Counted from the first letter of the stretch, positions 43,173 through 64,000 are shown. The stretch: DNA of 64,000 bases from a virus (IMGVR_UViG_3300028591_000210:879-64878), one strand, 5' to 3'. Numbers and translations are program-made. The notes: generated by a model from the letters alone, not told the origin.

Positions 43173-43197
43173 GGCAATAATATAGAAGTTGGCACAA

Positions 43198-43300
43198 ACG
43201 CCTAAAACTCCATCTATCTTGCTGCTTCATAGGGTTCGTAACCTCTTCCCTCCACAGCCTCTACACCCACTTGCCAATGGGCTTTAATTCGTTATTTTCT
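43198..43300 (-). ncRNA. TnpB omega-RNA 3' scaffold and guide (5' extent uncertain)
   Basis: GCTG-TGGAGGG-loop-CCCTATGAAG-CAGC-AA ends at 43219; putative guide GATAGATGGAGTTTTAGGCGT. Confidence 0.65.
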
Positions 43301-44426
43301 ATACTCCGACAAGGTTCTGCTTGTCGAAGGCAATATTCTTGATATTAATTGCAGCGTTAACGTCCCTATCAAGATGTTCACCACATTGAGGACATATCCA
43401 TTCACGGTCTTTCAACTGCAACTCTTGATTGATGTAACCGCATTTGTGACACAGTTTGCTGCTTGGCTCAAATCTACCAATGAACAGTATGTTCTTGCCA
43501 TACCATTCACTCTTATACTCCAACTGCCTCACAAACTCACTCCAACTTGCACCTTGAATTGCCCTTGCAAGGTGATGGTTCTGTTCCATCCCCTTAACAT
43601 TCAAGTCCTCAAGACAAATCACATCGTAGTTCCTTACAAGATTAGTGGATAACTTGTGCAAGAAGTCATTCCTTTGGTTGGTGATGCTTCTATAACACTT
43701 AGCAACCTTTACTCTCATTTTTTCGTGATTCATTGACTCCTTACCCTTCCTTGCAAACACCTTCTGCAAGTGAGCAAGTTTCCTTTGTACTTGTTCAAGG
43801 TGTTTTGGATTTGAGTATTTTGTTCCGTCTGAGAGTATTGCGTAGTCCTTAATGCCAAGGTCAATTCCAACTGCATTATCCTTAACCAACTTGGTTTTCG
43901 TTGGTTTGGGTTGCAAGTCATCAACTGTTATTGAACACCAATATGTTCCGCAATGGTCTCTACTGACAGTACAAGTGCCTTGTTTACAAATGCTTTGGTC
44001 AAACGCTCTATTTTCGCATAGTACAACCTTACCTAACTTTGGTAGTTTGACAGTCCAATTCTCAAAATCAAAATGTACAGATTTTATGAATTTCACAGAA
44101 TCCTTTGTACGTTTCTTGGATTTGAATCTTGGGTATTTTGCTTTCTTGCGGAAGAATGCAGTGAAAGCGTTGTCAAGGCTTCTTAGTGACTGTTGCAATG
44201 CTTCTGTTGTACATTCATTAAGCCAAACGTATTCCTCAGTTTGTTTCAATAAAGTAAGTTCTTTTGCAAGCTGTAGGTAGTTGATTGCCTTTCCATTTTC
44301 CTTATAAGCACTTGTCTTTGCATTTAAGCCCCAATTATAGATATAGCGTGTACAGCCGAAGAACTTTGACAAAAGTTCCTCTTGCTGTTGGTTTGGTTTT
44401 ATCTTATATTTGTAGGCTTTTAACAT
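43299..44426 (-). CDS. tnpB: RNA-guided endonuclease TnpB
   Basis: HTH KAYKYKIKP, RuvC GIDLG / CLEDL / DRDVNAA, and a CxxC-CxxC zinc finger. Confidence 0.93.
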   Translation of the reverse strand: MLKAYKYKIKPNQQQEELLSKFFGCTRYIYNWGLNAKTSAYKENGKAINYLQLAKELTLLKQTEEYVWLNECTTEALQQSLRSLDNAFTAFFRKKAKYPRFKSKKRTKDSVKFIKSVHFDFENWTVKLPKLGKVVLCENRAFDQSICKQGTCTVSRDHCGTYWCSITVDDLQPKPTKTKLVKDNAVGIDLGIKDYAILSDGTKYSNPKHLEQVQRKLAHLQKVFARKGKESMNHEKMRVKVAKCYRSITNQRNDFLHKLSTNLVRNYDVICLEDLNVKGMEQNHHLARAIQGASWSEFVRQLEYKSEWYGKNILFIGRFEPSSKLCHKCGYINQELQLKDREWICPQCGEHLDRDVNAAINIKNIAFDKQNLVGV

Positions 44427-44507
44427 AGTATTTATCAGCTTCTTTACTAATAAATATCACGTTGGATTAAAAAGTTCTGTTTTTGATGAAACTTTTTTAT
44501 AAAAACA

Positions 44508-44633
44508 ATGAGTTTTACTTCAAAGAAAAGCGGATTAGTTATAAAACCTGAAGATGAAGGAGAAGATGGTTGGTCAAGATTATTAGGACTTGTTGGTGAT
44601 TTCAATTCTGCTTATATGAAAATAGCACGATAA
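44508..44633 (+). CDS. 41-aa ORF inside the cassette (MSFTSKKSGLVIKPEDEGEDGWSRLLGLVGDFNSAYMKIAR)
   Basis: Translated by hand; followed directly by a terminator hairpin at 44636-44663. Confidence 0.4.
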   Translation: MSFTSKKSGLVIKPEDEGEDGWSRLLGLVGDFNSAYMKIAR

Positions 44634-44741
44634 ACAAAATGCAGCCATTTCTGACTGCATTTTATAGGTTAATTGTGCCAACTGCGATGTTATTGCCTAA
44701 AAAAATCCTATATATAAAATATAGGATTTTTGCAAAAAAAG

Positions 44742-47700
44742 TCAATAGCTTGTAACATCATCTGCCGTTCCTTGTATATTATCGTATCCACGGTCATCAA
44801 ATTGTGGCCGGAATAGCCTTTTTGTGAACTTATCATATGCTCTAACATAGAGGATATTACCTGGTTCCATTGTAAGTGGGTCCCACTGTAAGCATATGCA
44901 GTAATTAAATCCTAGTCTTTGTGAGAGTGTTTCATCGTAGAGGCAGCGGTATTGTTTTCCGTTTTCTTTGCTTGTCATCAATTCTCCGTATGTTGCGACA
45001 TAATTTTTAAGTACTTCTCTTTCGTGCCGCCATCTTTCTTTGAACGGGTTATGTTGTGCATTTCCATCTGCTACTACTTCTTCGTTTATATTTTTTATAT
45101 GATATTTTATATATTTTTCTGCTATAAATTTTATTGTATTTTCTTCTAGTCCTAGTGAATTTACTTTATCGTACAGTTCAGCATTTAGATTCCACAATTT
45201 TTCCAGATATTCTGTTCTTCTTAATATTTTGAACATAACGTTAAATGCGTCCATTTCTCCGTTTCTGGCGAGTCCGAATTTTCTCATTCTTTTTATTTTA
45301 TTGAGCAATTTATGTGCTTTTTTGCCTATTTCTCTTAGTTGTGCATCGTCATCTGTTGAATTAAGTTCATTGTACAGATTATCTATTGTTGTCATTATTT
45401 TTGCTGTTTTATTTTTGATTTCGTATTTTTCTAGTCCTATATCTTTAATATTATTTTTATCTGGCGTTTTAATCCATTTATTTTGTTCAAGGTCGAATAT
45501 GCCTCCGGATATTGCATTTGCATTTATATCTTCTACGTATATTTCTACTGAATATCCGTATATTTTGAGTTTATTATGTTCTTCATTCCATTCATTTTTC
45601 TTTGCATTGAAGTATTCTTGTACGAAATCTTTTCTTTCGTCTATTTCTGAAAAGTCCACGATTACATGTAGGTCAATATCTGAATAATTTGACCAATTAT
45701 AGTTGCATATCGAACCGGTTAGGTATATTCCTTTTCTTTTTATCCAATTAATATTTGCGAAGTCCCAAAAATCGTCAGCTATATCTAATAATTTAAGTCT
45801 GACTCTTGGGTTTAGTTTCATTCCGTCCCATATTCTATCGGCAAGGGTATCATTTTTCTTAAACGAGTCTAATTTAACTTCGTTTGGTTCTACTTCTGTT
45901 TCGATATTTTCATTCATAACATTAGAATCGTTAATAAATGTTTTATTAGTAGTTCTTTTTATTTGATTTGGCTCAAACACAACAACAGTATTAAGTCTGT
46001 CATAATTATCATAAAATATAGCTGAATCATAGCCAAGTTTTTCAAATACTTCAATTGTTTTTATTTTGTCAGCATTTCCATTCAAACACAATTCAGCATA
46101 TATTCCAGCATCGCCATACTCATTTTCCTTATTGTAATTATATATGGTTCTTGCTGCTACAGGTAACGCTCTTCTATAATATTTTTCATTCCACTCTTCT
46201 CCGTAACCGGCCGGTTCATATGCTGCTACAACTGTATCTGCGAATGGCTTTCCTTCATCAAGTTCTGCCATAATTTTTATCAACTGTTGAAGAGTAATTT
46301 TATTACTCTTTGTTGTCATTGGGTTTTCAACTCTAAGGTATGCCTCAATTACATTTTTACTAGAATATCCTATTGCCCTTGATTCATAAGGAGTAAAATT
46401 GAATCCATACCCCTCATAAGAACCATGTCCTCCAATATACTCTTTACTGAATTCATTAAACACAGCATCAGTACCATGATACATTTTTATTGGCTGACCA
46501 TTTTCATCTTTCAAAATAGAGTCTCCAAACCAACTTTCAAAAGTATTATCCTCTTCAATAACTTTATTTTCATAAAGCCAATTATTACCTTGCGGCTTTA
46601 TGCCATTATCAAAATAATTAAATATATCATTAATTACTCTATTTGGATTTGCTTTTCTATATTCTGCCCCACAAACAGTACTGGCATAAAATCTATTTTC
46701 TACGTATTTAGTTATTTCTAAAAACACATTTCCATCATGTTCTAAAATGTACTTTTTCAAGTGTGGAATTTGTTTATTTGTTGGCCGTTTTGAAAGTTCT
46801 ATTCCACCTAAATATCCCAATCTTATATTTCCAATATTTAAAAATTTACCAGGAGTCATTCCTTTTATTTTGGAAATAAACTTGTGGTCTTTAAATGCAA
46901 TAATTGAACCGTCAGTTAATATATATTTGCTTTCTCCACCTGTTTGCACTTTTTTGGCTAAGTCATTAATATCTTCACTCTCATAAAGCCCATTATTACC
47001 TTGAGGTCTTATACCTTCTGAATAATATCTATCAATTTCTCCAATAACATATCTCCAGTTTGGGGCAATATATTTTGCTCCTATTTCCTCTCCATTATCA
47101 AAAATATCAAGATAAAGTTTTTCTTCACTGTATGAAGATATAACTTGTCTAAGAACCTCTTCTTGTTCATAAGTTGGCTCTGCTCCAATATCAATGGAAT
47201 TTTGCAAAACCCTTATGTTGCCCATTTTTATAAAATCAAATTTACTTTTTACCCCTGGTATTAGACATATTTCATTATGCTCGCTTGGAGTATATACAAC
47301 AACGCCATTAGAAAGTATAAAGCCTCTACAATTTTTATAGTATTCTCCATGAGAAAACAATTTCATTGCAATATCATTAAGTTCTTGTGGATTATTTAAA
47401 TCATAAGTGTTTTTTTCATAAAGTTCATACGTTTCAAATTTTCCACTTCCGTTTTCTATACACGTTTGCAACATCTGTTCAGCCATGTCTTTGCCAAACA
47501 AATCAACTAGGTCATCATATAGTAAATTTTGGTCTCCTATCATATAATGAAATGTATCATTATCAAAATAGTCAACCCCAAATGTTACATATTCTGTATA
47601 ATATTGATGCCTTACTTCTTCAGAATCTTCAAGTTCACAATCTTGAAGCCATTCTTGATATTCTTCCTCATCAAAATACCATTCATATTCTACCAGCCCT

Positions 47701-47906
47701 ACATCTGATAAATCCACTCCATTAAGTCTATTTTCATTTATATGGAAAAAATCATTGTTGCCTCCTTCGCCACCAATTTCAAATTCATCTTTTTCATAAG
47801 GAGGTTTATTATCAGCAATAAAAGGTTTATGACTAGTTTGTTCACTAGCCATAAGCCTTTTAATATTAAACAAATTATCTTCTTTTATATAAATTGTCTT
47901 CTTCAT
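44742..47906 (-). CDS. Multidomain polyvalent-like protein: duplicated unknown domain, ART-PolyVal-like domain, Pol-beta nucleotidyltransferase
   Basis: WFGDSIL...MYHGT...GYGFNFT...EAYL; LTGS..NYNWS.YSDIDLH; two ~130-aa repeats ending I(R/K)PQGNNxLYE. Confidence 0.75.
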   Translation of the reverse strand: MKKTIYIKEDNLFNIKRLMASEQTSHKPFIADNKPPYEKDEFEIGGEGGNNDFFHINENRLNGVDLSDVGLVEYEWYFDEEEYQEWLQDCELEDSEEVRHQYYTEYVTFGVDYFDNDTFHYMIGDQNLLYDDLVDLFGKDMAEQMLQTCIENGSGKFETYELYEKNTYDLNNPQELNDIAMKLFSHGEYYKNCRGFILSNGVVVYTPSEHNEICLIPGVKSKFDFIKMGNIRVLQNSIDIGAEPTYEQEEVLRQVISSYSEEKLYLDIFDNGEEIGAKYIAPNWRYVIGEIDRYYSEGIRPQGNNGLYESEDINDLAKKVQTGGESKYILTDGSIIAFKDHKFISKIKGMTPGKFLNIGNIRLGYLGGIELSKRPTNKQIPHLKKYILEHDGNVFLEITKYVENRFYASTVCGAEYRKANPNRVINDIFNYFDNGIKPQGNNWLYENKVIEEDNTFESWFGDSILKDENGQPIKMYHGTDAVFNEFSKEYIGGHGSYEGYGFNFTPYESRAIGYSSKNVIEAYLRVENPMTTKSNKITLQQLIKIMAELDEGKPFADTVVAAYEPAGYGEEWNEKYYRRALPVAARTIYNYNKENEYGDAGIYAELCLNGNADKIKTIEVFEKLGYDSAIFYDNYDRLNTVVVFEPNQIKRTTNKTFINDSNVMNENIETEVEPNEVKLDSFKKNDTLADRIWDGMKLNPRVRLKLLDIADDFWDFANINWIKRKGIYLTGSICNYNWSNYSDIDLHVIVDFSEIDERKDFVQEYFNAKKNEWNEEHNKLKIYGYSVEIYVEDINANAISGGIFDLEQNKWIKTPDKNNIKDIGLEKYEIKNKTAKIMTTIDNLYNELNSTDDDAQLREIGKKAHKLLNKIKRMRKFGLARNGEMDAFNVMFKILRRTEYLEKLWNLNAELYDKVNSLGLEENTIKFIAEKYIKYHIKNINEEVVADGNAQHNPFKERWRHEREVLKNYVATYGELMTSKENGKQYRCLYDETLSQRLGFNYCICLQWDPLTMEPGNILYVRAYDKFTKRLFRPQFDDRGYDNIQGTADDVTSY

Positions 47907-47918
47907 TAAATTAATACA

Positions 47919-48191
47919 TTAACAATTGTCACATATTGGATATTGCAAATCGCTTTCATAGTTATATTCTTCCCCAATAAATTCTCCTATTTGCGTGTAA
48001 TCAATCCAAGGCTCATCATCAGATTTATTGTAATTAAAAGCAGTACCTTGGCATACATAAGGAACGGTCTGCATACCAATTATTTCCCCATCTTGAAACT
48101 CTCCTGTTTTATATTCATAAAGATAATTTGTTTCTTCAGCATCATCGTGATACTTTTTTAAGAAATCTTCGTCATATTTTTTCAAATCCAT
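47919..48191 (-). CDS. Hypothetical protein
   Basis: 90-aa ORF. Confidence 0.6.
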   Translation of the reverse strand: MDLKKYDEDFLKKYHDDAEETNYLYEYKTGEFQDGEIIGMQTVPYVCQGTAFNYNKSDDEPWIDYTQIGEFIGEEYNYESDLQYPICDNC

Positions 48192-48250
48192 AGTAATATT
48201 TTACTTTTTGCTAATAATATATTATTTATATAATAAATATATGTTTCTCA

Positions 48251-49024
48251 ATGAAAAAAACTATTATAATATCTGAAAATGCTTTTAAAAAAATAAAAAG
48301 TTTTATTATTAAAGAGGCTATTGGTAGCAACCCAACATTTGGGCAAGGTAGAAATGTAACAAATTATAAACCATATCTTGATAGCATTGGAAAAATAGAT
48401 AATCTTCATAAGGACAGATATAAAGATTATGAATTGGATAAAGCATGGAATGATTGGAAAAATACTGGATATAATAAAAATTCAGATGAATACTTAATAT
48501 ACCTTTCAAATTTCAAAAATTTCATGTTTGGTAATGGCGGCTTTTTAAGAAATTTATCATATGTTGGCGACCGTTTAAATGGACCATTGCACTCTCTAAT
48601 ATTGGACCCAAAATGGGTACAATCATTAAATGGAAAGCCATCATGGAAATATTCAGATTTAAATTCCGGAGAAGGCGGGGATGAATTTCATTGTTTTTAT
48701 ACTACCATTTTAAAATTATTTCAAAATCCTGCAATATGGAATGATTTTTTCTTTAATCCATATTTTAAAGAATATAAAGAAAAATATGACTCTATAAGAA
48801 ATAAAATAACATCTATAATGAAAACAAATAAAGAGTCTTATGAAACACAATATAAACCTTTATTGCCAATGGAAGAATATAAACAGTTGAACTTCTTTAT
48901 GAACGAAATAAACCAAGATACCAAAAAGGTAGAAAAAGGCATAAATTGTAAACCAGATTTATTCTATGACCCGCAATTTGGTTCAAATGATGATTATCTT
49001 GATAATGATGATGAAGAATATTAA
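48251..49024 (+). CDS. Hypothetical protein with KKTIIISE leader
   Basis: 257-aa ORF; TATTTATA at 48223-48230. Confidence 0.7.
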   Translation: MKKTIIISENAFKKIKSFIIKEAIGSNPTFGQGRNVTNYKPYLDSIGKIDNLHKDRYKDYELDKAWNDWKNTGYNKNSDEYLIYLSNFKNFMFGNGGFLRNLSYVGDRLNGPLHSLILDPKWVQSLNGKPSWKYSDLNSGEGGDEFHCFYTTILKLFQNPAIWNDFFFNPYFKEYKEKYDSIRNKITSIMKTNKESYETQYKPLLPMEEYKQLNFFMNEINQDTKKVEKGINCKPDLFYDPQFGSNDDYLDNDDEEY

Positions 49025-49158
49025 AAATAAAAAGGAACGATATACCTGTTGACACAAGCCGCTCCTTTTAAATAAAAATGCAAAAATGAGGAATTGTATA
49101 TGCAATACCTCATTTTTTTACGTGTCTATCCGATATTTATATAAAAATATAAAACAAT

Positions 49159-50271
49159 ATGAAATACTTAAAACTTTTTAAAACAACAGCTCAGTATGAA
49201 GAAGTTAGGCAAAACTAAGTTTTGCCTAATGTTTCTCTATGTGAAGATGCTCCAACTACCGTGCATTACAGTCCTTATGCGCATGATTATTCCCAAGACT
49301 ATTTAACCTTTGTAGCAAAAGAAGATAGTACATTTAAGCTCGTTTATAATAGCGTTAGTTATTCACTTGACGAAGGTGAAACATGGACGGAACTTGCAAG
49401 TAATACAGATTCACCAACTGTCACAAGTGGAAACAAGATAATGTGGAAAGCAACGTTAACCCCAAATCAGTATGCTGGTATTGGTGAATTCTCTTCAACG
49501 GGTCAATTTGACGTTCAAGGCAATATTATGTCATTGCTATATGGTGATAACTTTAAAGAGCAAACGAGCTTAAGTGGAAAGAATGGCGCGTTTGCATATT
49601 TATTTAGTGGTTGTACAAATCTTGTAAGCGCTAAAAACTTATCATTACCTGCTACAACGTTGGCAGAATCATGTTATAATAGTATGTTCTATCGTTGCAC
49701 CTCGTTAACGACAGTGCCTAAATTACCTGCTACCACATTGGTAAGTGCATGTTATAATAGTATGTTCAGTGGTTGCACCTCGTTAACAACAGCGCCTGAA
49801 TTACCTGCTACAACGTTGGCAGACTACTGTTATAGTAATATGTTCCAAGGTTGCAAATCGTTAACGACAGCGCCTGAATTACCTGCTACAACGTTGGCAA
49901 ACGGCTGTTATAATTATATGTTCGCTGGTTGCACCTCGTTAACAACAGCGCCTGAATTACCTGCTACAACATTGGCAAAAGTATGTTATAATAGTATGTT
50001 CAGTGGTTGCACCTCGTTAACGACAGCGCCTGAATTACCTGCTACAACGTTAACAGGCTCCTGTTATACTGATATGTTCAATGGCTGTAGTAAATTGAAT
50101 TATATTAAGGCAATGTTTACCACAGAACCAAGTTCAACTTATACGTCAAATTGGGTAAATGGCGTTGCAAGTAGTGGCGCATTTGTTAAAAACAGCACTG
50201 CAACGTGGACAAGTGATTGTGGGCCATCAACTTTTCCATGCAATTGGACAGTTGATACAGCATCAAGTTAA
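49159..50271 (+). pseudogene. BspA-like leucine-rich repeat protein with in-frame TAA at codon 20
   Basis: ATG 49159 follows the late motif; reads MKYLKLF...QN*VLPNVS; six 26-aa LPATTL..CY..MF.GC.SL repeats. Confidence 0.75.
49645..50112 (+). repeat. Six tandem 78-bp LRR-coding repeats
   Basis: ttacctgctac recurs at 49645, 49723, 49801, 49879, 49957 and 50035. Confidence 0.9.
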
Positions 50272-50455
50272 ATTAATATATAAAAAATAACATTTTAACA
50301 TTTGCCACTTTATATAATAAAGTGGGGCGGATAAAAAGGTATCATAACATTTAACAAAAAAATCTGCAAGAAACGATGAGGTTCTTGCAGATTTGCATAT
50401 TTATTCAAAAGGAGCAGCTTGTGTCAACAGGTATTCATTCCCAAAATAAAAAGGA

Positions 50456-51940: not shown

Positions 51941-52125
51941 ATTTTTGAATCAATCCAATATAACGTGCCAAGTGGTTTATTCATTGGTTTGACAGTAGCC
52001 AAATCAAGCCCTATTGTCCTTGCAAAAACCTTTCGTACTGTTGGAATAAAATAGCCATAAAATTTGTTATTTTTTGTTAGACATGAATAATCATATCTTT
52101 TATAAACGAATTTCTTTTTATTCAT
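51937..52125 (-). CDS. 62-aa protein resembling a short segment of the major capsid protein
   Basis: PTVRKVFARTIGLDLATVKPMNKPLGTLYWI aligns to MCP PIIRRVFSKLLANDIVSVQAMNLPVGKLFFI. Confidence 0.6.
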   Translation of the reverse strand: MNKKKFVYKRYDYSCLTKNNKFYGYFIPTVRKVFARTIGLDLATVKPMNKPLGTLYWIDSKI

Positions 52126-53230
52126 AATTTTCCCTATTAAATGATTTGAGAACGGGGAATCTTAAAAGTTCATCATTTGTTTCCCCGAAATAGCAAACTG
52201 TTGCCATTTTTCCTATATATTTTTCTTTATTTTCCAATATTTCTTTACATACTTCATCCGGAAAACTTAAAGTTGCGTTGCATAATTTTCCATTCTTGAG
52301 CCTAATTGTTACGCTTTCAGCCATCGTCTTTGTTTTTCCAAGGTTTACGTCAACAACCTCAAACTCATCATCTTGGAACTTCTTATATTTTAATAGATTC
52401 TTGCTTCTTTTATGCTCATATGGTTTATCTAGCCTTATTATTGCTCCTTCATAACCATCATCTATAAATTGATTAAAATATTTTTCTACTTCTTCTTTTG
52501 AATTGATTTCAAATGTTGGCACAACCACCGCTGTTTTCAAATTTGAAAATATTTCTTTTATAATACTGATTCTTTCGGAAAATGGCATATTTGGTTCGTT
52601 ATCAAACCATGCATCATATACAAAGTATTTGACGGTACTTTCTATATTTTCTTTATCTTTTTCATCGATTTTTTGTTTTTTAACTAAAGAAACAATTTTA
52701 TTGAAATCATCGTGCAAATCATGGTTATAAAGCTCGCCATCAACGTGCATATTAGGAAAATTCTCCAATATAGAAGATAGTTCGCTTTCAATATGCTTGG
52801 TGGAATAAAACATTTTGTTTCTTCTACTTATTGAAGTAACTCTATCATTATCAGACATTGACATGTTGCATCTTATACCGTCCAATTTTGGCTGAATAAA
52901 TTTCATATCTTTAGCATAAATGCCATCATATACTTTTGCCAGCATTGGCGGGTTGAAGGATATTTTATCAACGTCTTCAATGTTAATGACAAAGTTTTCT
53001 TTCTCTATTTTCCGATTCCATATTGATTTTGCTTCCAATAAAGTTTGTTGATAATCATCGGTTTCATTTTTCTTGCCTTTATTTTTTCCAAAACAAAAAA
53101 CTTTGTCTGATTGTTGAACTGTACCGTCTACAAGTCCAAACTCGGTCCAATAATAATTTTCTTCGACTATTATTTTCCAGAAATTAATTTTTTTATTATT
53201 ATTTCTTTTATATAAAACTGGTAAACACAT
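52118..53230 (-). CDS. ATP-dependent DNA ligase
   Basis: PMLAK, QPKLDGIRC (KxDG), VDGELY, GYEGAIIR and LLKYK. Confidence 0.92.
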   Translation of the reverse strand: MCLPVLYKRNNNKKINFWKIIVEENYYWTEFGLVDGTVQQSDKVFCFGKNKGKKNETDDYQQTLLEAKSIWNRKIEKENFVINIEDVDKISFNPPMLAKVYDGIYAKDMKFIQPKLDGIRCNMSMSDNDRVTSISRRNKMFYSTKHIESELSSILENFPNMHVDGELYNHDLHDDFNKIVSLVKKQKIDEKDKENIESTVKYFVYDAWFDNEPNMPFSERISIIKEIFSNLKTAVVVPTFEINSKEEVEKYFNQFIDDGYEGAIIRLDKPYEHKRSKNLLKYKKFQDDEFEVVDVNLGKTKTMAESVTIRLKNGKLCNATLSFPDEVCKEILENKEKYIGKMATVCYFGETNDELLRFPVLKSFNRENYE

Positions 53231-53283
53231 GATATATAATATTATTTATAATATATTAGGTAATTATATACCTGTTGACACCA

Positions 53284-53362
53284 ATAGTGTCTAAGGATTT
53301 ATTATATTGACGTTTCATAGGGTGACTAATGCCATTGCCCTCACCGTCCATCAAACCGCCTA
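53284..53362 (-). ncRNA. TnpB omega-RNA 3' scaffold and guide (5' extent uncertain)
   Basis: GACG-GTGAGGG-loop-CCCTATGAAA-CGTC-AA ends at 53307; putative guide TATAATAAATCCTTAGACAC. Confidence 0.65.
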
Positions 53363-54520
53363 CCTACGGTCCGTTATTTCTTCAGCCTTTTCCTCAAAGC
53401 CTACCAAGGCTTGAGGGTTTAAGGCGAACTTCTTAATGTTTGTTGCAGCATTAATGTCTCTATCGTGATGCTCACCACAAATAGGACAAACCCATTCGCG
53501 GTCTGACAACTTCAAGTCACTCTTAACATAACCGCATTTGCTGCAAGTCTTTGAACTTGGTTCAAACCTACCAATAAATATCAAGTTCTTCCCAAACCAG
53601 TCACTCTTGTACTTAATTTGCCTAACAAATTCTCCCCAAGAGGCTGATTGAATGCTTTTTGCAAGGTTGTGATTCTTCATCATACCTTCAACATTAAGAT
53701 TCTCAAGACATATTGTATCAAATCTATTAACAAGGTCTGTTGTTAATTTATGAAGGAAGTCATTACGCATATTGGTTATCTTACGATACTGTCTTGCAAC
53801 CTTAAGTCTCATTACCTCGTGTCTCTTTGAATCTCTTACTGTTCTTGCAAACCTATGTTGTAGCAATGCAAGTCTTGCTTGACAATGCTCGTAATATTTT
53901 GGATTTGAGCATTTAGTTCCGTCAGATAGAATTGCGTAGTCCTTGATGCCCAAGTCGATTCCAACACTTGTACCTTCAGAAATCTTGGCTTTCGATTTCA
54001 TCTGTTCTTCTGTTTCCACGACTATTGAACACCAGTATTCTCCACATTTATCCCGACTGACGGTAAGAGTGCCTATCTTTGATGTTGACAAGTCAAATGG
54101 CTTATTCATACATAGTTTAACCCATCCACACTTTGGTATCTTAACCTTCCACTTGTCAAAGTCAAAGTGTACGGCTGCAATGAACTTTGCAACATCCTTT
54201 GAATGTTTTCTTGATTTGAACTTTGGAAATCCTTTCTTTGCTTTAAAGAACTGTGTATAAGCATTATCAAGGTTGCGTAATGATTGTTGTAGACATTCAT
54301 TTGGCACTTCCTTCAACCAAGTATACTCATCTGTTTGTTTCAATGTTGTTAGTTCTTTTGCAAGTTCAAAGTATGTTACTGTTTTATGCTCATTTGTCCA
54401 AGCCTTTGTCTTTTTATCAAGACCCCAATTATATATGAAACGAGCACATCCAAAAGTTTTTGACAATTGGATTTGTTGTTTTACTGTTGGTTTTATTTTG
54501 TACTTGAATGCTCTTTTCAT
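53360..54520 (-). CDS. tnpB: RNA-guided endonuclease TnpB
   Basis: RAFKYKIKP, GIDLG, CLENL, CSKC..CPIC and DRDINAA. Confidence 0.93.
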   Translation of the reverse strand: MKRAFKYKIKPTVKQQIQLSKTFGCARFIYNWGLDKKTKAWTNEHKTVTYFELAKELTTLKQTDEYTWLKEVPNECLQQSLRNLDNAYTQFFKAKKGFPKFKSRKHSKDVAKFIAAVHFDFDKWKVKIPKCGWVKLCMNKPFDLSTSKIGTLTVSRDKCGEYWCSIVVETEEQMKSKAKISEGTSVGIDLGIKDYAILSDGTKCSNPKYYEHCQARLALLQHRFARTVRDSKRHEVMRLKVARQYRKITNMRNDFLHKLTTDLVNRFDTICLENLNVEGMMKNHNLAKSIQSASWGEFVRQIKYKSDWFGKNLIFIGRFEPSSKTCSKCGYVKSDLKLSDREWVCPICGEHHDRDINAATNIKKFALNPQALVGFEEKAEEITDRR

Positions 54521-54765
54521 AATAATTATTAATCTTTTCTATTAATAAATATTACGAAGCTTTGAAAAATACTTGTTTTTATAAAAAAATATAAACTTTT
54601 TTTGTTAATGAAAGCTAGAGCACATATACAAAGTATATGTTAAAACATAAATGAGCAACCCAATTGATATTTAGAGTCAACAGGTATATAATTCCCATAT
54701 ATTATTATTAAAATATAATAAATTAAAATTTAATATAATATATAAAATTATTTTATTTAATATTA

Positions 54766-54773: not shown

Positions 54774-54850
54774 CATTTTTTTTGAAAAAAAACAAAATTT
54801 TTAACTTGATTTTTTTTATTTTTTCCTTATTTTTTATAAAAAGAGAAATT

Positions 54851-57346
54851 ATGAGTGAGAAAAAAAATTATTCTTTTGAGTTACAAGGTGTGCTATCATA
54901 TATGATAGACATATTGGCAAATGAGTTTCCAGTTGATATTTTTACGCCGGAATATCTTATTGTATCAATTCTTGATACTAAGAAATGTCATGCTAATATG
55001 TTTTTAGACAATTATTTAATGTCTGAAAATATGGAGGAATTAAGGGAAATTTATACTTCTGTTCTTAGGGAGAATAAAGTCCCCATTTTAAAAGACAAGA
55101 ATAAAGAAAAAGTAGAATTTAATTTTGAATTAAATAAAATCATGGAAAAAGCCGAAGTTGAAGCTAATAAATTAGGTTCTTCAAGTATAGGAACTGAACA
55201 TATTTTATTATCAATATTAAATCCGGAAAACGAAATAAAGATTAGAGATGTTTTTACAACAGTTGGAATAGATTATGAATTAATATTCAACAAGTGTAAA
55301 GATAGCAGAAAGACAGTAATAAATAATAGAAAAAATGCTTTCATAAATAATAAAGGAACTAATCAGCAAACTCCAAAAATGATACCATTAAAAAGCGAAA
55401 TTAATGCAACAATTACAGTTGGTGATGCAGAATATATTTCAAAATATACAACAAATATTAATAATTTGGTCAAAGAAAACAAAATAGATGATTTGGTTGG
55501 CAGAGAGAAAGAAACCAATCAAATCTTAAAAGTACTTTCAAGAAGGCGTAAAAATAATGTTGTATTGGTTGGCCCCGGCGGAGTTGGAAAAACAGCAATA
55601 GTTCAAAATTTAGCAAAATTAATAGAATCCGGCAACGTGCCAAGTTTTATGGAAGGTAAAAAGCTTGTAATGTTGGATATAATGGCATTAGTAAGTGGGA
55701 CACAATTAAGGGGTATGTATGAAGAAAGAGTGAATGGTTTATTTAAGGAATTAAAGAATAGTAAAAAACATATATTGTTTATTGATGATATTCATACTGT
55801 TTTAAAAAGTGGGTCGAGGGATAATGATAAAGACTTATCAGGAATGTTGGGAGAAATATTATTAAACGGGGATGTGAAAATAATAGGAACTACAACAAAT
55901 AAAGAATATAGAAATTCAATAGAAACTAACCCCGGTATTTCTAATAAATTCCAAAAAATTATGATTGAACCATCAACAGTAGATGAAACCATTGAAATAC
56001 TTAAAAAAAATAAAAAATATTATGAAGAATATCATAATGTAGAATATACAGATGATGCCATTAAAAAGTGTGCAGAATTATCAGAAAGGTATATTACAGA
56101 TAGAAAATTACCAGACTCAGCATTTGATATATTAGATTTATCTGGTGCATATGTTTCATTAATTAAAAACGAATCACTTGAATTTTCAGAATTAAAGAAG
56201 AGGCTTTCCAAAATAGAAGAAGAAAAAAATGAAATATTAAATAACGGGGACTTTGAAAAAATAGATGCGTTAACAATAGAAGAAAATGACATAAAGAAAA
56301 GAATCAGCGATTTCAAAAGGAATAATAAAAAGAAAAAACAAATAGTAGTTAATTCTAATGATATTTTAAACACAGTATCAGATTCCACAGGAATTCCAGT
56401 AACAAAATTGTCTAATAGTGAAAAAGAAAAAATTGCTCATATTGATAAAAAACTTAAAGAGGATATAGTTGGGCAAGATGAAGCAATAGACGAGATTTGC
56501 AAAATTATCAAGAGGAATCGTGTAGGACTTGGAAGTAAGAAAAAATGTTCAGCGGCTTTCCTATGTTGTGGAAAAAGTGGAGTTGGAAAGACATTTTTAG
56601 CTAAAAGATTGGCAGCAGAAATCTTTGGGGATGAAAATGCAATGATTCGAATTGATATGTCGGAATATTCTGAAAAAAATTCAATAGCAAAATTAACTGG
56701 AACGGCCCAAGGTTATGTCGGATATGAAGATGGAGGCATTCTTACAACCGCAATCAAAAATAAGCCATACTCTGTTGTTTTATTGGATGAAATTGAAAAA
56801 GCTGATGAATCCATTTTCAATTTATTCTTACAAATATTTGATGAGGGAAGATTAACAGAAAGCAATGGTACTGTTGTTAATTGCAAGAATTGCCTTTTTA
56901 TTATGACATCAAATATTGGAGCAAAACAAGCTTCTGAGTTAGGAAAAGGCATTGGATTTGTAACAAATGAAGCTGACAATAAAAAAGCAATTATTGAGAA
57001 AGAGCTAAAAAGCAAATTTACTCCAGAATTTTTAAACAGAATTGATAAAATTGTTTATTTTAACTCATTAACAGACGATAATTTAAAAGATATTGTAAAC
57101 TTGGAAATTAAAAAATTAAACAAGCGTTTAAAAGAAATTGACTATAGCATACAATATGATGATAAAGTAGTAAACTTTATACATGAACAAGCGGTAAAGC
57201 AAAAAGAATATGGAGCCAGACCAATTATAAGGTTAATACAAAATAATTTAGAAGATTCAATTACTGATTTGCTGCTTGAGAATGAATATGAACCGGAATA
57301 TGTATTCAGTGCAACATGTAATTCGGGCAAAATAGAGATTAAATAA
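54851..57346 (+). CDS. clpC: ClpA/ClpC-type AAA+ unfoldase
   Basis: Walker A GPGGVGKT and GKSGVGKT, RYITDRKLPD, LLDEIEKA, GARP and IGF loop; ATG 54851 preferred over TTG 54782. Confidence 0.88.
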   Translation: MSEKKNYSFELQGVLSYMIDILANEFPVDIFTPEYLIVSILDTKKCHANMFLDNYLMSENMEELREIYTSVLRENKVPILKDKNKEKVEFNFELNKIMEKAEVEANKLGSSSIGTEHILLSILNPENEIKIRDVFTTVGIDYELIFNKCKDSRKTVINNRKNAFINNKGTNQQTPKMIPLKSEINATITVGDAEYISKYTTNINNLVKENKIDDLVGREKETNQILKVLSRRRKNNVVLVGPGGVGKTAIVQNLAKLIESGNVPSFMEGKKLVMLDIMALVSGTQLRGMYEERVNGLFKELKNSKKHILFIDDIHTVLKSGSRDNDKDLSGMLGEILLNGDVKIIGTTTNKEYRNSIETNPGISNKFQKIMIEPSTVDETIEILKKNKKYYEEYHNVEYTDDAIKKCAELSERYITDRKLPDSAFDILDLSGAYVSLIKNESLEFSELKKRLSKIEEEKNEILNNGDFEKIDALTIEENDIKKRISDFKRNNKKKKQIVVNSNDILNTVSDSTGIPVTKLSNSEKEKIAHIDKKLKEDIVGQDEAIDEICKIIKRNRVGLGSKKKCSAAFLCCGKSGVGKTFLAKRLAAEIFGDENAMIRIDMSEYSEKNSIAKLTGTAQGYVGYEDGGILTTAIKNKPYSVVLLDEIEKADESIFNLFLQIFDEGRLTESNGTVVNCKNCLFIMTSNIGAKQASELGKGIGFVTNEADNKKAIIEKELKSKFTPEFLNRIDKIVYFNSLTDDNLKDIVNLEIKKLNKRLKEIDYSIQYDDKVVNFIHEQAVKQKEYGARPIIRLIQNNLEDSITDLLLENEYEPEYVFSATCNSGKIEIK

Positions 57347-58109: not shown

Positions 58110-58162
58110 AAAGAAAAAGAAAACGTCTCTGACAATATTTATTTTATATTAAATGAATTAGA

Positions 58163-58647: not shown

Positions 58648-59265
58648 ATGAGACAAAAGAAAACATTATTAACGATTGCAGCACTAATCAGTGCATTTTT
58701 GATTTCTGTATCTCTTCCATTAAAATCAACTAAATTACAATTTAATGGAGAAACAGGAGAAACTGAAGTTCTAAAAGATTCAATTGTAATAGAATCAATT
58801 AGTCCTAAAGATAGCCTAAAAGACAAATTAATAATAGAAGTGGAAAACTATATATATAATAATTTTCCAAAAGTAAAAAAAGAAATTCCAACATTAATTG
58901 TTGAGCATGGCCTTGAACATAAAATAGATATTTTATTTATGATGGCTCAAACCCAAATAGAAACGCAGTATGGGACAACAGGAGCCGGAAGAGAAGCATC
59001 AAGGCGTTCACTTTTTGGCGTGGCAACAAAAAGGTATCAAACTTATAAAAATGCGTTTGAAGATTATGTTAGAGTCCTTAAAAAGTTTTATTTGACAAAA
59101 GGTAAAACTGAGGAACACCTAATGAGAAAGTATACGACTTCTGGAGGCTTAAGATATGCCGGAGACCCAAATTATGAAAAAGAGTTGAGAAATGCATATA
59201 ATGTCATTAAGAAGAAAACTAATATAGAAATTTTACAAAAAGAATATAGGCTAATCAATGCATAA
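58648..59265 (+). CDS. Glucosaminidase (GH73-like) cell-wall hydrolase with N-terminal TM
   Basis: AQTQIETQYG, SLFG and YAGDPNY. Confidence 0.7.
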   Translation: MRQKKTLLTIAALISAFLISVSLPLKSTKLQFNGETGETEVLKDSIVIESISPKDSLKDKLIIEVENYIYNNFPKVKKEIPTLIVEHGLEHKIDILFMMAQTQIETQYGTTGAGREASRRSLFGVATKRYQTYKNAFEDYVRVLKKFYLTKGKTEEHLMRKYTTSGGLRYAGDPNYEKELRNAYNVIKKKTNIEILQKEYRLINA

Positions 59266-59267
59266 AC

Positions 59268-59298
59268 AAAAAGTTTGGCAAAACGCCAAACTTTTTTT
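59268..59298. terminator. Bidirectional terminator
   Basis: aaaaagtttggc aaaac gccaaacttttt. Confidence 0.7.
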
Positions 59299-59788
59299 AT
59301 TTACCCCAATGATTCTGAAGCAGAGCTTCAAGTTCTTCAGGAGTTTTACCTGCATATGGGTTGTTTTTCATGATGGATTTCTTTTTATCCACTGGTTCTA
59401 CAACGTCTGCCTTTGGAGCAAAACCTTTTGATTTTTCTGCTGCAAAATAGTCAAAATCGGAATCATCATTGTCATTTGGGTCATCATACTTCAAATACTC
59501 AGCCTTTTGAGCAGCCGTCATTTTTCCCATTTTTTTAGCTTCTCTATCTCTAAAGTATTTTTTCATTGCCCTTGCTCTAGCGCCAAAGTCTTTTCCAAAC
59601 TCAGCTTTAATTGCATCATCCTTTGCTTTTTGCAATTTTGTCCCCTCAGCACTATCCGTAATATCTGGTGCATCTAAAAATCTATCAAATGCATCTTGCC
59701 AATTTTCTTCATTTAAAATTTTTACAACAGACTCCTTTATAATATTATGTAAATCGCTTTCTGTTATTCTGATTATTTGATTAGCCAT
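59297..59788 (-). CDS. Putative head-internal protein with ITESDLHNIIKES leader
   Basis: MANQIIRITESDLHNIIKESV; late motif at 59827-59834. Confidence 0.7.
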   Translation of the reverse strand: MANQIIRITESDLHNIIKESVVKILNEENWQDAFDRFLDAPDITDSAEGTKLQKAKDDAIKAEFGKDFGARARAMKKYFRDREAKKMGKMTAAQKAEYLKYDDPNDNDDSDFDYFAAEKSKGFAPKADVVEPVDKKKSIMKNNPYAGKTPEELEALLQNHWGK

Positions 59789-59791
59789 TGT

Positions 59792-60223
59792 TTATCTTCT
59801 ATTTCTAATGTTATGATTATTATTTCTATAAATATTGCCACCTTGCCTAAAGTTATCATTTCTTCTGGGATTTATGTTGTTTCTATGCCTATCAAAATAA
59901 TTCCTCCTATTATCATAACTATGATGCCTGCGGTAATCCATATTATCAAATCTATAATGAGACATATGAGCTGGATTAAAATACATATAAGGCCTTGAAT
60001 ATCTATAATAATAAACCGTATTATTTACATAGTATGGATAATAATACCAACCATTATATGAATAATAAGCGATAGTACCATTTACATAGTATGGGCTTCC
60101 ATATCTGACAACAACATCAATATCAACATCACCATCTTCATAAGCAAAAGCTGTTGATATGCATGATGTGGTTAAAGCCAACGTACTAAATAGCATAAAT
60201 AATATAAAAATAATCTTTTTCAT
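59792..60223 (-). CDS. Putative lipoprotein, Tyr-rich then Arg/Asn-rich
   Basis: Signal peptide MKKIIFILFMLFSTLALTTS-C. Confidence 0.6.
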   Translation of the reverse strand: MKKIIFILFMLFSTLALTTSCISTAFAYEDGDVDIDVVVRYGSPYYVNGTIAYYSYNGWYYYPYYVNNTVYYYRYSRPYMYFNPAHMSHYRFDNMDYRRHHSYDNRRNYFDRHRNNINPRRNDNFRQGGNIYRNNNHNIRNRR

Positions 60224-60245
60224 AATGAATTTAAGTTAAAAAAAG

Positions 60246-61151
60246 TTATTTAGCCCATTTCTTTACATTCTGAGCAAATATGGCCCTCTTTTTAGTTATA
60301 GGATTTTTTGAATGGGTTAATTCTTCAGTAGATTTGCCCGTTCTTTTTTTTGTTGCTGTAAATTTTCCTTTATTTTCAGGTTTAATATGAATGCTATTTT
60401 CAGTAACTGGGTCATTTTCATTCCTAATATCGCCGGCTTCTATGTATTCATGGCTTGCCCTGAGTTCTCTTAGTAATCCGCCCAAAAAGTTTGCAGCTCT
60501 CTTATAGCCACTTTGCAGCATTAAGCCTGCCACATTCATAGTTTTATTTTCAAAATCTTTCAAAGTTTCCAAATACAAATCAAGTTCATGCCTTGCAAAT
60601 TGTTTTTGGTCAAATACTGCCTCATTTATGTTTTTATTTGAGGTGACATTTTTTATTGCCTCATTTACCAATTCCCTTAACTCGTTTTCGGTTAATGAAT
60701 AAGTTTCTTTACCGTTTGACACAGTTACCCTATTTTCAAGCATTTTGCTTCTAAGGCGTTGTTTTAAGTTCTCTTTGATGGTAAAATCAACCAGATATAG
60801 TTTGCGCTGCATATCGCTTAAAAATGCCTCCGTGTCGCTTCTCATACCAATATAATCATCGCCTTCCTTCTTAAGTTTTGAATAGAAATCATTTGTAGAT
60901 GATATAACTTTTTCAACAAATGACTTAAGATTTTCTACATTTTCATTTCCGCCTTTTAAAATATTTAAAGGAAATTTACCTGAAATCGATTGTTCAACTT
61001 CAGCAATTTTATCTTGATAATCAGAGATTAATTCGGCTATATCATCACATAACTCATGTTGAGGCAAATTTTTTGAACTCCAATGTAGCTGCTTTATTAG
61101 ACTTTTGTATACCTCAAGCTCGTTAATAAAATCAATTATATATTTCTTCAT
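60246..61151 (-). CDS. Ferritin/Dps-like N-terminal domain plus basic C-terminal module
   Basis: LHW......HELCD......QDKIAE; internal LTENELRELVNE; C-terminal IHIKPENKGKFT. Confidence 0.55.
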   Translation of the reverse strand: MKKYIIDFINELEVYKSLIKQLHWSSKNLPQHELCDDIAELISDYQDKIAEVEQSISGKFPLNILKGGNENVENLKSFVEKVISSTNDFYSKLKKEGDDYIGMRSDTEAFLSDMQRKLYLVDFTIKENLKQRLRSKMLENRVTVSNGKETYSLTENELRELVNEAIKNVTSNKNINEAVFDQKQFARHELDLYLETLKDFENKTMNVAGLMLQSGYKRAANFLGGLLRELRASHEYIEAGDIRNENDPVTENSIHIKPENKGKFTATKKRTGKSTEELTHSKNPITKKRAIFAQNVKKWAK

Positions 61152-61165
61152 TTTTTATTTTTTTA

Positions 61166-61179
61166 TATAAATATTTATA
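61166..61179. promoter_or_regulatory. Back-to-back late-promoter-like motif TATAAATATTTATA
   Basis: Lies between the divergent genes at 61151 and 61202. Confidence 0.6.
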
Positions 61180-61201
61180 TAAAAAATAAATTGTAAATAT
61201 T

Positions 61202-62698
61202 ATGACAAAATTATTAAAAATAGGAGCAGAATATATCCCAAATTATACAGTAACGTTGCAGGATGGAAGTAAAAAACAAGAACCTTGTGTAATGTTTTAT
61301 TTTGATTCTGACGCAAAAACGGCAAATATGGTGGCTGGCTCTGGCGTAGCCAAAGGGTTGAAGGCTGCTGGTGATGCTGTTGTCAAAGCTATCAAAGTTG
61401 ACAAATATAAAGATTTTATTTATGGACAAAAAATGTTCCCTAAAATATTATCAGAATTTGAAAAATATGGGTACGTATATGATACAAATAGCCTTAATAC
61501 TTTAGAAGCCAATGTAGAGCAAGAAATTAATAACGTATTAACTGGAGACGCATCAAGTAAAATCTATGCTGATAATACATCATTTATAGATGATATTATA
61601 AAAGCAATGGAAGAAAATATGAATGACCCAAAATTTATGAGTTATGTTAATGCAGTTGGAAGTATTCAATATGTTGGTGATGATGTTTTAAGTAAAGTAA
61701 CAAAATTATCATATAAAAATACCGTTATGGTATTGTCTCAGTGGGTTAATGCCGGGAATTCAGGAGCTCCTACTTATTTGGCCACAAAAAGACAATGGTC
61801 AAAATTCTTTAATCGTGATGTAAATCCTGGCGCAACTCCATTATACATTGTTAACCCAAAAGATGTTGTGCATAGGAGTGTAAAACAAACGATGAGGGAT
61901 TATGGTGTATCACAAGCTCAATATGATGCAAACCCAATGATTAGAAAACAAATTGATACGCTTACAAACGATAAAGATTATGGAAAATACAACAATCATT
62001 CATTTGGTTTAAATGGTATTAGTCCATATTACGATTATAGCCAAACATCATTGCAAGCTGGCGCACAAAGCAATTATGATTTTGATAACATCAGCATGGG
62101 CAACGTTGACAAAGATAAAGACAAAGCAGAAGATGAGAAAAGAGGAGATATTTTGGCAGCAGCAACTGGGTCAGATTCAAGAATAAATGAAACTGATATA
62201 ATTAACAACTTAAAGGAATATGCCATAAAGAATAATAACACAGATTTGATAAATATATTAAATGGTAAAGGCAATATAATAACAAACGCAATAGAATATT
62301 TGGCAGAAAATTCAAAAACCATCCTTCGTGAAGTTGACGAAAATAAAAAGAAATTATATGAAGGCGTTCTGGTTGCATTAGTTTTAAAAAGGCTTCAAAT
62401 AAATATAGATTATTCAGATAACCTCATTATGAAAAATATGAGTAAACTTAAAACATATGGAGGCTTAAATAAACAAGCATTCTATGATGTTGGCTCTGAC
62501 TTCGAAAATATTATTTATATTGTAAATGGAATAAATGAATCAGTTAGTGATAATACATTTATGTGGATGCTTAATGCACTAGGTATATCAGTTGAAGAAT
62601 TTAAATCTATGCCAAATACCGAAGAAGAAGCAAATGAAATTAAAAACGGAATAAAAGAATCATTCATTAAAACGTTTAACAAGTTACTAAAAGGATAA
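61202..62698 (+). CDS. Protein with ArdC-N-like ssDNA-binding motif
   Basis: LSYKNTVMVLSQ...PTYLATKRQW.KFFNRDV.PGATPLYI. Confidence 0.55.
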   Translation: MTKLLKIGAEYIPNYTVTLQDGSKKQEPCVMFYFDSDAKTANMVAGSGVAKGLKAAGDAVVKAIKVDKYKDFIYGQKMFPKILSEFEKYGYVYDTNSLNTLEANVEQEINNVLTGDASSKIYADNTSFIDDIIKAMEENMNDPKFMSYVNAVGSIQYVGDDVLSKVTKLSYKNTVMVLSQWVNAGNSGAPTYLATKRQWSKFFNRDVNPGATPLYIVNPKDVVHRSVKQTMRDYGVSQAQYDANPMIRKQIDTLTNDKDYGKYNNHSFGLNGISPYYDYSQTSLQAGAQSNYDFDNISMGNVDKDKDKAEDEKRGDILAAATGSDSRINETDIINNLKEYAIKNNNTDLINILNGKGNIITNAIEYLAENSKTILREVDENKKKLYEGVLVALVLKRLQINIDYSDNLIMKNMSKLKTYGGLNKQAFYDVGSDFENIIYIVNGINESVSDNTFMWMLNALGISVEEFKSMPNTEEEANEIKNGIKESFIKTFNKLLKG

Positions 62699-62704
62699 AT
62701 AGTC

Positions 62705-63724
62705 ATGGAATTGTTTAAAAAAATAGCAAATAAATTATTAAAAGAAGAATTTGAACAAGACGGTAATTTCTATGTTTATCATGGCACACAAGATACTGCA
62801 TTAGATGGTATATCAAAACTTGGGTTTGAAAGATTTTTTACATCATCTAATGGAGGAAATATGTATGGCGCCGGATTATATTCCACATATAAATTATCTA
62901 CGCAGGGCCAAAACGCAAGAGGTGCTTACGGCCATTTAATGTTTAAGCTTAGAGTAAAAAGCCTCAGAAATTTTATTATATATGACCCAGATATAGCCAT
63001 AAAAGTATATGGAAATGCAAGTGTGGAATATCAACTGAAGAAAATATTATCTCCAGAAACATTTGAAAAATTAAAGCAACAGCATAATTATCAAAAAATT
63101 ATCAACTCAAGAGGAGACCAAATAACGAGTACATGCGCTCTCGCTTTATGCGAATATTTGAATTATTATGACCAAGAAGCCTCATATAAAATAAATGGTC
63201 TAATATTTTCCGGTAACCATGACGGATGGGTATGCTTTATAAAAGACTTTAAAAATGCATATCCAGTAGAAATAAGCAATGACTGTGGAAGAACATGGAG
63301 CAAATTTAAAGGTAAAGAAACTTTGAAAGAATTTGGAATCGATGATGTTGACCTCAAATTTCAACTTGGAAAACATAATTATAAATTAATGCAAGAATTA
63401 GACGATGTTCCATTTTATTTTATAAACGGTTTTGCAAAAGTTAAAAAAGCAAACAAATATAACTTTTTATATAGGAAAAAACCATTAGCACAAGGAGTAA
63501 TAAGCCCCGTTTGGTTTGATAACGCACCAGAAACATTTACAAAAAGAGGAACATGTACCGTTATTGTTGATGGGGAAACATATATAATAAGACTTGACCC
63601 AAAGACTAATTTATTCTATGTATATTATTCAGATGGAAGATACTTATGCAGACTTGATTTCTTTGATAAATTCTTAATGAACATTAATAATCAAGACTTG
63701 GATGATGAAGATGAAGAATTTTAA
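62705..63724 (+). CDS. PARP/ART-like domain plus WG-like repeat
   Basis: YVYHGT...GNMYGAGLYST; FINGFAKV..NKYNFL. Confidence 0.6.
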   Translation: MELFKKIANKLLKEEFEQDGNFYVYHGTQDTALDGISKLGFERFFTSSNGGNMYGAGLYSTYKLSTQGQNARGAYGHLMFKLRVKSLRNFIIYDPDIAIKVYGNASVEYQLKKILSPETFEKLKQQHNYQKIINSRGDQITSTCALALCEYLNYYDQEASYKINGLIFSGNHDGWVCFIKDFKNAYPVEISNDCGRTWSKFKGKETLKEFGIDDVDLKFQLGKHNYKLMQELDDVPFYFINGFAKVKKANKYNFLYRKKPLAQGVISPVWFDNAPETFTKRGTCTVIVDGETYIIRLDPKTNLFYVYYSDGRYLCRLDFFDKFLMNINNQDLDDEDEEF

Positions 63725-63743
63725 GCCATATATTATATATTAA

Positions 63744-64000
63744 GGCAATGATATAGAAGTTGGCACAAACGCCTAAAACTCCATCTATCTTGCTGCTTCA
63801 TAGGGTTCGTAACCTCTTCCCTCCACAGCCTTTACACCCACTTGCCAATGGGCTTTAATTCGTTATTTTCTACACTCCGACAAGGTTCTGCTTGTCGAAG
63901 GCAATATTCTTGATATTAATTGCAGCGTTAACGTCCCTATCAAGATGTTCACCACATTGAGGACATATCCATTCACGGTCTTTCAACTGCAACTCTTGAT
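63744..64000 (-). mobile_element. Third tnpB cassette (partial), near-identical to copy 1
   Basis: 3 differences in 257 nt versus 43173-43429, covering TIR, guide, scaffold and tnpB 3' end. Confidence 0.9.
63870..64000 (-). CDS. tnpB: TnpB, C-terminal part (cut by window edge)
   Basis: [42 protein letters not shown]. Confidence 0.9.

Follow-up and report, generated by a model that had tools for sequence, protein, structure and literature searches.

The 64,000-nt stretch of viral DNA analyzed here (the window; bases 879 to 64878 of a 64,878-base IMG/VR virus record) carries, from position 43173 onward, genes for the RNA-guided nuclease TnpB and for a leucine-rich-repeat (LRR) protein between related inverted repeats, which raises the question of how such cassettes move and what becomes of the TnpB guide RNA (omegaRNA) between ends of this kind. 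An earlier note, made from the sequence alone, had proposed a family of transposase-less cassettes with interchangeable cargo, bounded by terminal inverted repeats (TIRs). We now consider it very probable that the cassettes are non-autonomous derivatives of insertion sequences (ISs) of the IS1595 family, i.e., mobile insertion cassettes (MICs), that they are moved by a transposase acting in trans, and that the TnpB guide RNA is built on their right end. The record is 19% complete as estimated by CheckV, which for 64.9 kb implies a genome of roughly 340 kb, and the designation "jumbo phage" follows from this estimate. DNA nearly identical to the window is present in sheep-gut metagenome runs.

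The end motif GGNAATNATATANNNGTTGRCAC was found, with up to 3 mismatches, at 8 sites in the window (43173 [+], 44675 to 44697 [−], 49033 [+], 53259 [+], 54674 to 54696 [−], 63744 [+], 7469 to 7491 [−], and 16796 [+]), whereas a mean of 0.17 sites was expected from dinucleotide-preserving shuffles, 0 of 100 of which reached 8 sites. Six of the seven related ends announced by the earlier note are among these sites; the seventh, finishing at 50442 (−), has a 1-nt deletion, was identified by eye, and forms a repeat of ~37 nt with its partner. The ends of the cassettes are ~23 nt long and face inward in the pairs 43173/44697, 49033/50442, and 53259/54696, giving three cassettes of 1,525, 1,410, and 1,438 bp, within the 1.4 to 1.5 kb claimed for them. 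Transposase genes are absent from the 64.9-kb record, as the term transposase-less had implied.

Cassette 3 (53259 to 54696, minus strand) contains only a tnpB gene (53360 to 54520, minus strand; 386 amino acids [aa], 61% identity to the tnpB gene of cassette 1) and is flanked by the perfect 8-bp duplication that had been noted, ATATATTA, at 53251 to 53258 and 54697 to 54704. Cassette 2 (49033 to 50442, plus strand) carries a gene for a BspA-type LRR protein of 349 aa (49222 to 50271, plus strand; Pfam LRR_5, 7e-9) and has the A-rich direct repeat AAAATAAAA at both flanks, the register of this duplication being ambiguous because of the A-run. Cassette 1 (43173 to 44697, minus strand) again contains TnpB only (43299 to 44426, minus strand; 375 aa; Pfam OrfB_IS605, Cas12f1-like TNB, and HTH_OrfB_IS605), between IS1595-type ends consisting of a right-end inverted repeat at 43173 to 43195 (minus strand) and a left-end inverted repeat with 2 mismatches at 44675 to 44697 (plus strand), without a target duplication. 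The end at 63744, unpaired in the earlier note, shares 254 of 257 bases with the right end of cassette 1 and therefore belongs to a fourth TnpB cassette, of which the inverted repeat, the predicted omegaRNA region, and the 3′ end of tnpB are present (63744 to 64000, minus strand) before the contig stops inside it. The near-identity of cassettes 1 and 4, which lie at different sites, points to recent copying.

Beyond the window, numerous cassettes have these ends and are flanked in each case by an 8-bp target duplication, so that the transposon behavior expected by the earlier note was indeed found. Close relatives of the TnpBs in other IMG/VR contigs (81 to 90% identical) each had the common end motif and a perfect 8-bp duplication, and the duplications were unrelated to one another (TACCAATA, TTAAAAAA, and TAATATAA). 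In a collection-wide motif scan, 56 viral loci had the end motif, and ~18 inward-facing pairs formed cassettes of 494 to 2,699 bp with perfect AT-rich 8-bp duplications; altogether, perfect 8-bp duplications of unrelated sequence were found at ~50 different sites. The cargo was interchangeable, as had been predicted, and comprised unrelated families, i.e., TnpB, LRR_5 proteins (one with an additional Big_2 domain), truncated TnpB (the C-terminal 96 aa only in contig L025), and other unknown open reading frames (ORFs), among them small ones of 141 to 186 aa. Homologues of the window LRR protein were the cargo of four other cassettes and also lay beside a transposase gene in contig L245.

The source of the ends became apparent from autonomous elements, and the search for an IS1595 transposase with matching ends that the earlier note had proposed was successful in viral as well as in Bacteroidales contigs (contig L028, seven more viral copies, and 31 Bacteroidales contigs). 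The element at L028:5899-8597 has two perfect GGCAATAATATAGCAGTTGGCAC ends, the duplication TAAGGAAA, and a gene for a 331-aa transposase (L028:7500-8495) that matched the Pfam domains DDE_Tnp_IS1595 (1e-44) and the N-terminal IS1595 zinc ribbon (2e-9) and scored 199 bits against NCBIfam transpos_IS1595 (cutoff, 75). Seven further viral autonomous copies, of 1.5 to 3.0 kb and in most cases with 8-bp duplications, brought the total to eight viral contigs. Relatives of the transposase numbered 63 (one genome per species). Nearly all of them were encoded by Prevotella and Bacteroidales of the rumen or gut, the isolates Prevotella sp. MA2016 and Prevotella sp. tf2-5 among them, and at 31 Bacteroidales loci, that of tf2-5 included, ends of the same family were found together with perfect 8-bp duplications. 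Among the cultured phages in INPHARED, there were four weak transposase matches only. A cognate transposase with the family domains thus lies between the same ends, with inverted repeats and an 8-bp duplication, as is characteristic of IS1595, and the window cassettes combine IS ends, an unrelated ORF, and no transposase with a cognate IS in the gene pool, as is characteristic of MICs. The ends GGTAATTAT and GGCAATAAT fit the form ggnnatTAT, which we take to be the ISNwi1-subgroup consensus of ISfinder, the assignment to this subgroup being provisional. In all autonomous copies found, viral and Bacteroidales, a tnpB gene beside the transposase gene was absent. In a Bacteroidales metagenome-assembled genome from horse feces, an autonomous IS1595 element (L245:2249-5120; duplication AAAAAATA) has an LRR gene beside its transposase gene, with up to 54% identity (in the aligned part) to the window LRR cargo, and is a plausible precursor of the LRR-only cassettes.

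The earlier note had staked its reading on empty alleles with a single 8-bp site in relatives, and such an allele was found. Metagenome contig L107 is syntenic with the window from 40 to 58 kb (43 to 92% protein identity), and between the homologues of ORFs 48251 and 50456 it has no cassette and only one copy of TAAAATAAAAAAGG, after which comes the terminator hairpin that is also present in the window, where the target flanks cassette 2 on either side. In L107, a 95-bp intergenic region also takes the place of cassette 1 and the HNH gene next to it. In contig L086, the ligase and ClpB genes are adjacent and cassette 3 is missing, an empty site read from gene order, because the intergenic DNA between these two genes could not be aligned to the window.

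The nuclease itself looks active, judging from its residues. The window TnpBs scored 332 and 337 bits against NCBIfam guided_TnpB (cutoff, 100) and, with the IS200/IS605 TnpB exception model, 420 and 399 bits, just under its cutoff of 425. Among natural proteins of known structure, ISDra2 TnpB (8BF8) was the best match (E value, 6e-81), with alignment to its D191, E278, and D361. The corresponding D189, E273, and D355 and four cysteines were invariant in 6 TnpB copies that are 59 to 85% identical, so that both the RuvC D-E-D site and the CxxC...CxxC zinc finger of TnpB and OMEGA nucleases are present, and the window holds two and a half cassettes carrying an ISDra2-like TnpB with an intact nuclease site. 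An IS200/IS605 element was ruled out by the inverted repeats, the 8-bp duplications, and the lack of TnpA.

A profile scan yielded 80 more viral TnpB loci, and IS1595-type ends surround TnpBs that are 54 to 90% identical to those of the window and one that is 38% identical. Sixteen distinct right ends were aligned for RNA analysis. RNAalifold on MAFFT alignments mainly recovered stem A, and because subfamilies were misaligned by 2 columns in these alignments, stems B and C were scored by motif-anchored scripts. The scaffold predicted for cassette 1 is made up of stems A, B, and C, an inner stem, and a pseudoknot. Stem A, a hairpin ~100 nt from the element end, shows compensatory changes, stem B was paired in 64/64 cells with 8 strand combinations, and the last hairpin is formed in 16/16 sequences by a variable segment and the inner portion of the inverted repeat. 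The loop of stem A, GGNAA, covaries with the last five element bases, UUNCC, across the 16 right ends. The loops lie at −85 to −114 from the end (GGCAA at −103 to −99 in cassette 1), the loop-to-end helix was paired in 97.5% of cells, and its central pair was GC in 6, CG in 4, UA in 4, AU in 1, and UG in 1 sequence and unpaired in 0. The covariation score was reached by 0/500 shuffles, and when the partner was slid by 1 to 3 columns, pairing fell to 15 to 54%. In cassettes with unequal ends, the loop agrees with the right end and not with the left, as in cassette 3 (left, GGGAAT; right, GGTAAT; loop, GGTAG) and likewise in contig L119, and the constraint is therefore on the RNA and not on transposase binding. 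An RNA that overlaps the 3′ end of tnpB, runs to the element end (101 to 128 bp beyond the 3′ end of tnpB), and has a guide-adjacent pseudoknot is thus supported by covariation. In cassette 1, the predicted omegaRNA scaffold is ~113 nt long (43173 to 43285, minus strand; 5′ limit approximate), and its right-end inverted repeat, as RNA, would provide both the pseudoknot strand, UUGCC, and the 3′ arm of the terminal stem. A scan of the whole window at Rfam gathering thresholds gave no match.

From this covariation, the scaffold probably runs through the repeat as far as the last base of the right end; the flank would therefore serve as the guide, with the target duplication as its first eight bases. 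The first flank base at the right end was T in 15/15 independent TnpB cassettes scored (window positions 43172, 53258, and 63743 and 12 other loci), or in 16/16 when contig L116 is included at a boundary shifted by one base, compared to ~24/47 of the cassettes with other cargo or a transposase. The bias is orientation specific and suggests that the RNA or its target is under selection; the RNA, or the guide at its first position, could require this base.

Alternatively, the guide might be a fixed internal sequence located downstream of stem B, from its "GAA-N-NNNN-AA" end to the inverted repeat, and TnpB, although carried in IS1595 shells, would address one constant target and not the flank. 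The segment after stem B does differ among subfamilies in length (8 to 22 nt) and in sequence, and the 3′ strand of stem B with the following AA resembles the guide-proximal "G-U-N-C-A-A" of ISDra2. However, this is the very segment that forms a hairpin with the inverted repeat in all 16 sequences, it is nearly constant among copies at different sites, and a target search in 870 kb of related DNA returned self-matches and AT-rich chance matches only; moreover, if the functional RNA ended upstream, covariation of the terminal five bases with the upstream loop would go unexplained. We therefore regard an internal guide as unlikely. Distinctly unlikely is also the possibility that tnpB is a decaying passenger without present function, spread only because the transposase recognizes the ends. 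Truncated copies such as that in L025, the loss of a right end in contig L013, and the range of other cargo, which indicates that the shell moves anything, would fit such decay, but catalytic and zinc-finger residues remain invariant across copies that have diverged to 59 to 85% identity, three RNA helices are maintained by compensatory changes, and T adjoins the right end in all 15 TnpB cassettes scored but in only about half of the others. That the repeats are promoter or operator sequences or invertase sites that bracket genes by chance can be dismissed as extremely improbable, since, AT-rich and intergenic though they are, with TTGACA-like and TATA-like words, they are accompanied by perfect duplications of unrelated sequence, they are absent from an empty site in a relative, and they enclose an IS1595 transposase gene elsewhere.

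We thus return to the cassettes as IS1595-derived MICs, for which the following course of events may be envisaged. Each cassette consists of two ~23-nt IS ends enclosing one cargo gene without a transposase, and an IS1595 DDE transposase acting in trans would bind the ends, insert the cassette into AT-rich DNA, and duplicate 8 bp. The transposase might be encoded by autonomous copies in another part of the phage genome, by a coinfecting phage, or by the chromosome of a Prevotella or Bacteroidales host, where the same IS family is common. The omegaRNA scaffold would have been rebuilt around the borrowed right end, with the inner half of the repeat closing the last stem as its 3′ arm and the outermost five bases pairing with the hairpin loop ~100 nt upstream, and the guide would be flanking DNA starting with the duplicated target. 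TnpB would then most likely cut cassette-free alleles in coinfecting phage genomes or sister copies, and recombination would copy the cassette in, which would make TnpB an RNA-guided homing nuclease riding a cut-and-paste shell. Of this course of events, we have observed the ends, the duplications, an empty site, and autonomous partners, and we infer mobilization in trans, expression of the RNA, use of a target-adjacent motif (TAM), cleavage by TnpB, and the homing role.

Several observations weigh against this interpretation. The flanks of cassette 1 are unmatched (TTTTTCTA versus TAAAAAAA), i.e., there is no duplication. No IS1595 transposase gene was found in the 64.9-kb record, which represents ~19% of the genome, and many of the Bacteroidales contigs are metagenome bins in which misbinned phage DNA is possible. 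The 5 nt upstream of 7 to 8 duplications were A-rich, with no clear TAM. Finally, since DDE cut-and-paste transposition already leaves a double-strand break, it is debated what an element of this kind gains from TnpB (PMC13565253). Only tentatively, then, do we join all parts into one picture, in which IS1595 shells shuttle genes between rumen Prevotella and large phages, the transposase-binding end doubles as a pseudoknot strand, insertion makes the guides, TnpB homes in phage crosses, and the T at the first flank position marks functional insertions.

The general principle that TnpB occurs in DDE transposons with TIRs and that solo TnpBs are moved in trans was already published in 2023 (PMC10691335). 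Altae-Tran et al. described six DDE-associated TnpB branches (DDE-1 to DDE-6) with inverted terminal repeats, and solo TnpBs whose ends are shared with transposase-bearing elements and which are presumably mobilized in trans; IS630 is the only partner family named in their main text (PMC10691335), and a 2026 review lists ISL2, IS630, and IS1031 (PMC13565253). IS1595 is mentioned in neither main text (PMC10691335, PMC13565253), and the other papers examined in which both TnpB and IS1595 appear draw no link. As in the DDE branches, TnpB lies here between inverted terminal repeats, with the 3′ end of tnpB <250 bp from the transposon end, and as in the solo TnpBs, the ends are common to transposase-bearing elements. 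In contrast to the DDE branches, no autonomous copy here has tnpB beside the transposase gene, and the inverted-repeat pseudoknot is not described there. New relative to these papers are IS1595 as the partner family, the multicargo cassettes in large rumen phages, and the inverted-repeat pseudoknot.

The usual carriers of TnpB, IS200/IS605 and IS607, have no inverted repeats, in agreement with the earlier note, and no target duplications, and IS200/IS605 is further defined by subterminal hairpins and a Y1 TnpA (PMC13565253). In the ISDra2 omegaRNA, the scaffold is 116 nt long and positions −5 to −3 pair with −103 to −105 beside the guide (PMC10097598). The TnpBs described here have in common with ISDra2 a strongly matching protein sequence, the catalytic residues, a similar scaffold length, and a pseudoknot of guide-adjacent bases with a site ~100 nt upstream. 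Unlike ISDra2, the cassettes have no TnpA and no subterminal-hairpin ends, having inverted repeats and an 8-bp duplication instead, and the 3′ strand of the pseudoknot is taken from another IS family, in which it is the end bound by the transposase.

Also comparable are MIC231 of IS231 (De Palmenaer 2004) and the passenger-carrying "transporter IS" of IS1595 (Siguier 2009), both as cited in PMC3129680. As far as they are described there, MICs likewise consist of IS ends around nontransposition genes, lack a transposase, and are activated by a cognate transposase, and the autonomous IS1595 copies found here bear passenger genes, as do the transporter ISs. The present cassettes differ from the MICs of that account in being phage borne and in that one end family carries many single-gene cargoes, including an RNA-guided nuclease whose RNA would use the end. 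Fanzor proteins are carried by transposons of eukaryotes that have TIRs (Bao and Jurka 2013, PMC3627910), and they resemble the present TnpBs as TnpB-family nucleases inside cut-and-paste elements with TIRs and target site duplications; unlike Fanzor elements, those described here are from prokaryotic viruses and carry an ordinary IS605-type TnpB.

Some further members of the family deserve mention. A TnpB cassette at L013:2636-4230 (the same locus as in contig L139) has kept its left end and lost the right inverted repeat after the scaffold, a natural deletion that should have immobilized it. The TnpB with 38% identity to that of the window (L168:1109-2466) has GGGAYYTATAT-type ends and the perfect 8-bp duplication ATTTTATA; a loop complementary to its terminal ATCCC was looked for and not found, and the element may represent an older or independent TnpB capture. 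In the Lak megaphages, Lak-B5 has a TnpB without such ends. A conserved segment of ~25 aa (consensus, MNKKLIRLTESDLHRIVKESV) heads or sits within many otherwise unrelated phage ORFs (1210 to 1290, 11287 to 11358, and 59708 to 59788 in the window, all on the minus strand; L075:4993-5943, L009:2375-2803, and many more); no other cargo is as common in the small cassettes, and most autonomous IS1595 copies have it as a convergent passenger. The segment had no assignment in Pfam, NCBIfam, or Protein Atlas, in the last of which the LTESDLH-motif protein matched no informative family, and it may be a targeting tag, a packaging tag, or a recombination handle.

Elsewhere in the window, a solo end with 1 mismatch lies at 7469 to 7491 (minus strand) and a weak end-like site with 3 mismatches lies at 16796 to 16818 (plus strand), the latter being either a chance match or a degenerate member of the TTTGACCC end subfamily; a search for partner ends of either gave none that was credible. 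An HNH homing-endonuclease-like gene (42595 to 43230, minus strand; phrog_559, 3e-34) adjoins the right end of cassette 1, and because the annotated start codon falls within the inverted repeat, translation probably begins farther downstream. Other neighbors of the cassettes are genes for a 1,054-aa polyvalent protein with ART-PolyVal and nucleotidyltransferase domains (44742 to 47906, minus strand), an ATP-dependent DNA ligase (52118 to 53230, minus strand) that is missing from L107 and present in L086, and a ClpB-like double-AAA ATPase (54782 to 57346, plus strand).

For TnpB, these results mean that the nuclease can switch carriers, from single-strand "peel-and-paste" ISs to DDE cut-and-paste ISs. 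A 23-nt stretch appears to have a double role in this switch, as a transposase binding site when it is DNA and as part of the guide scaffold when it is RNA, and this dual role provides a testable case of guide acquisition kept despite a changed transposition chemistry, which bears on the origin of Fanzor. For large rumen phages and their likely hosts, which have single-gene cassettes (TnpB, LRR, and unknown small proteins) in common, the cassettes constitute a route of gene flow that is overlooked by standard annotation.

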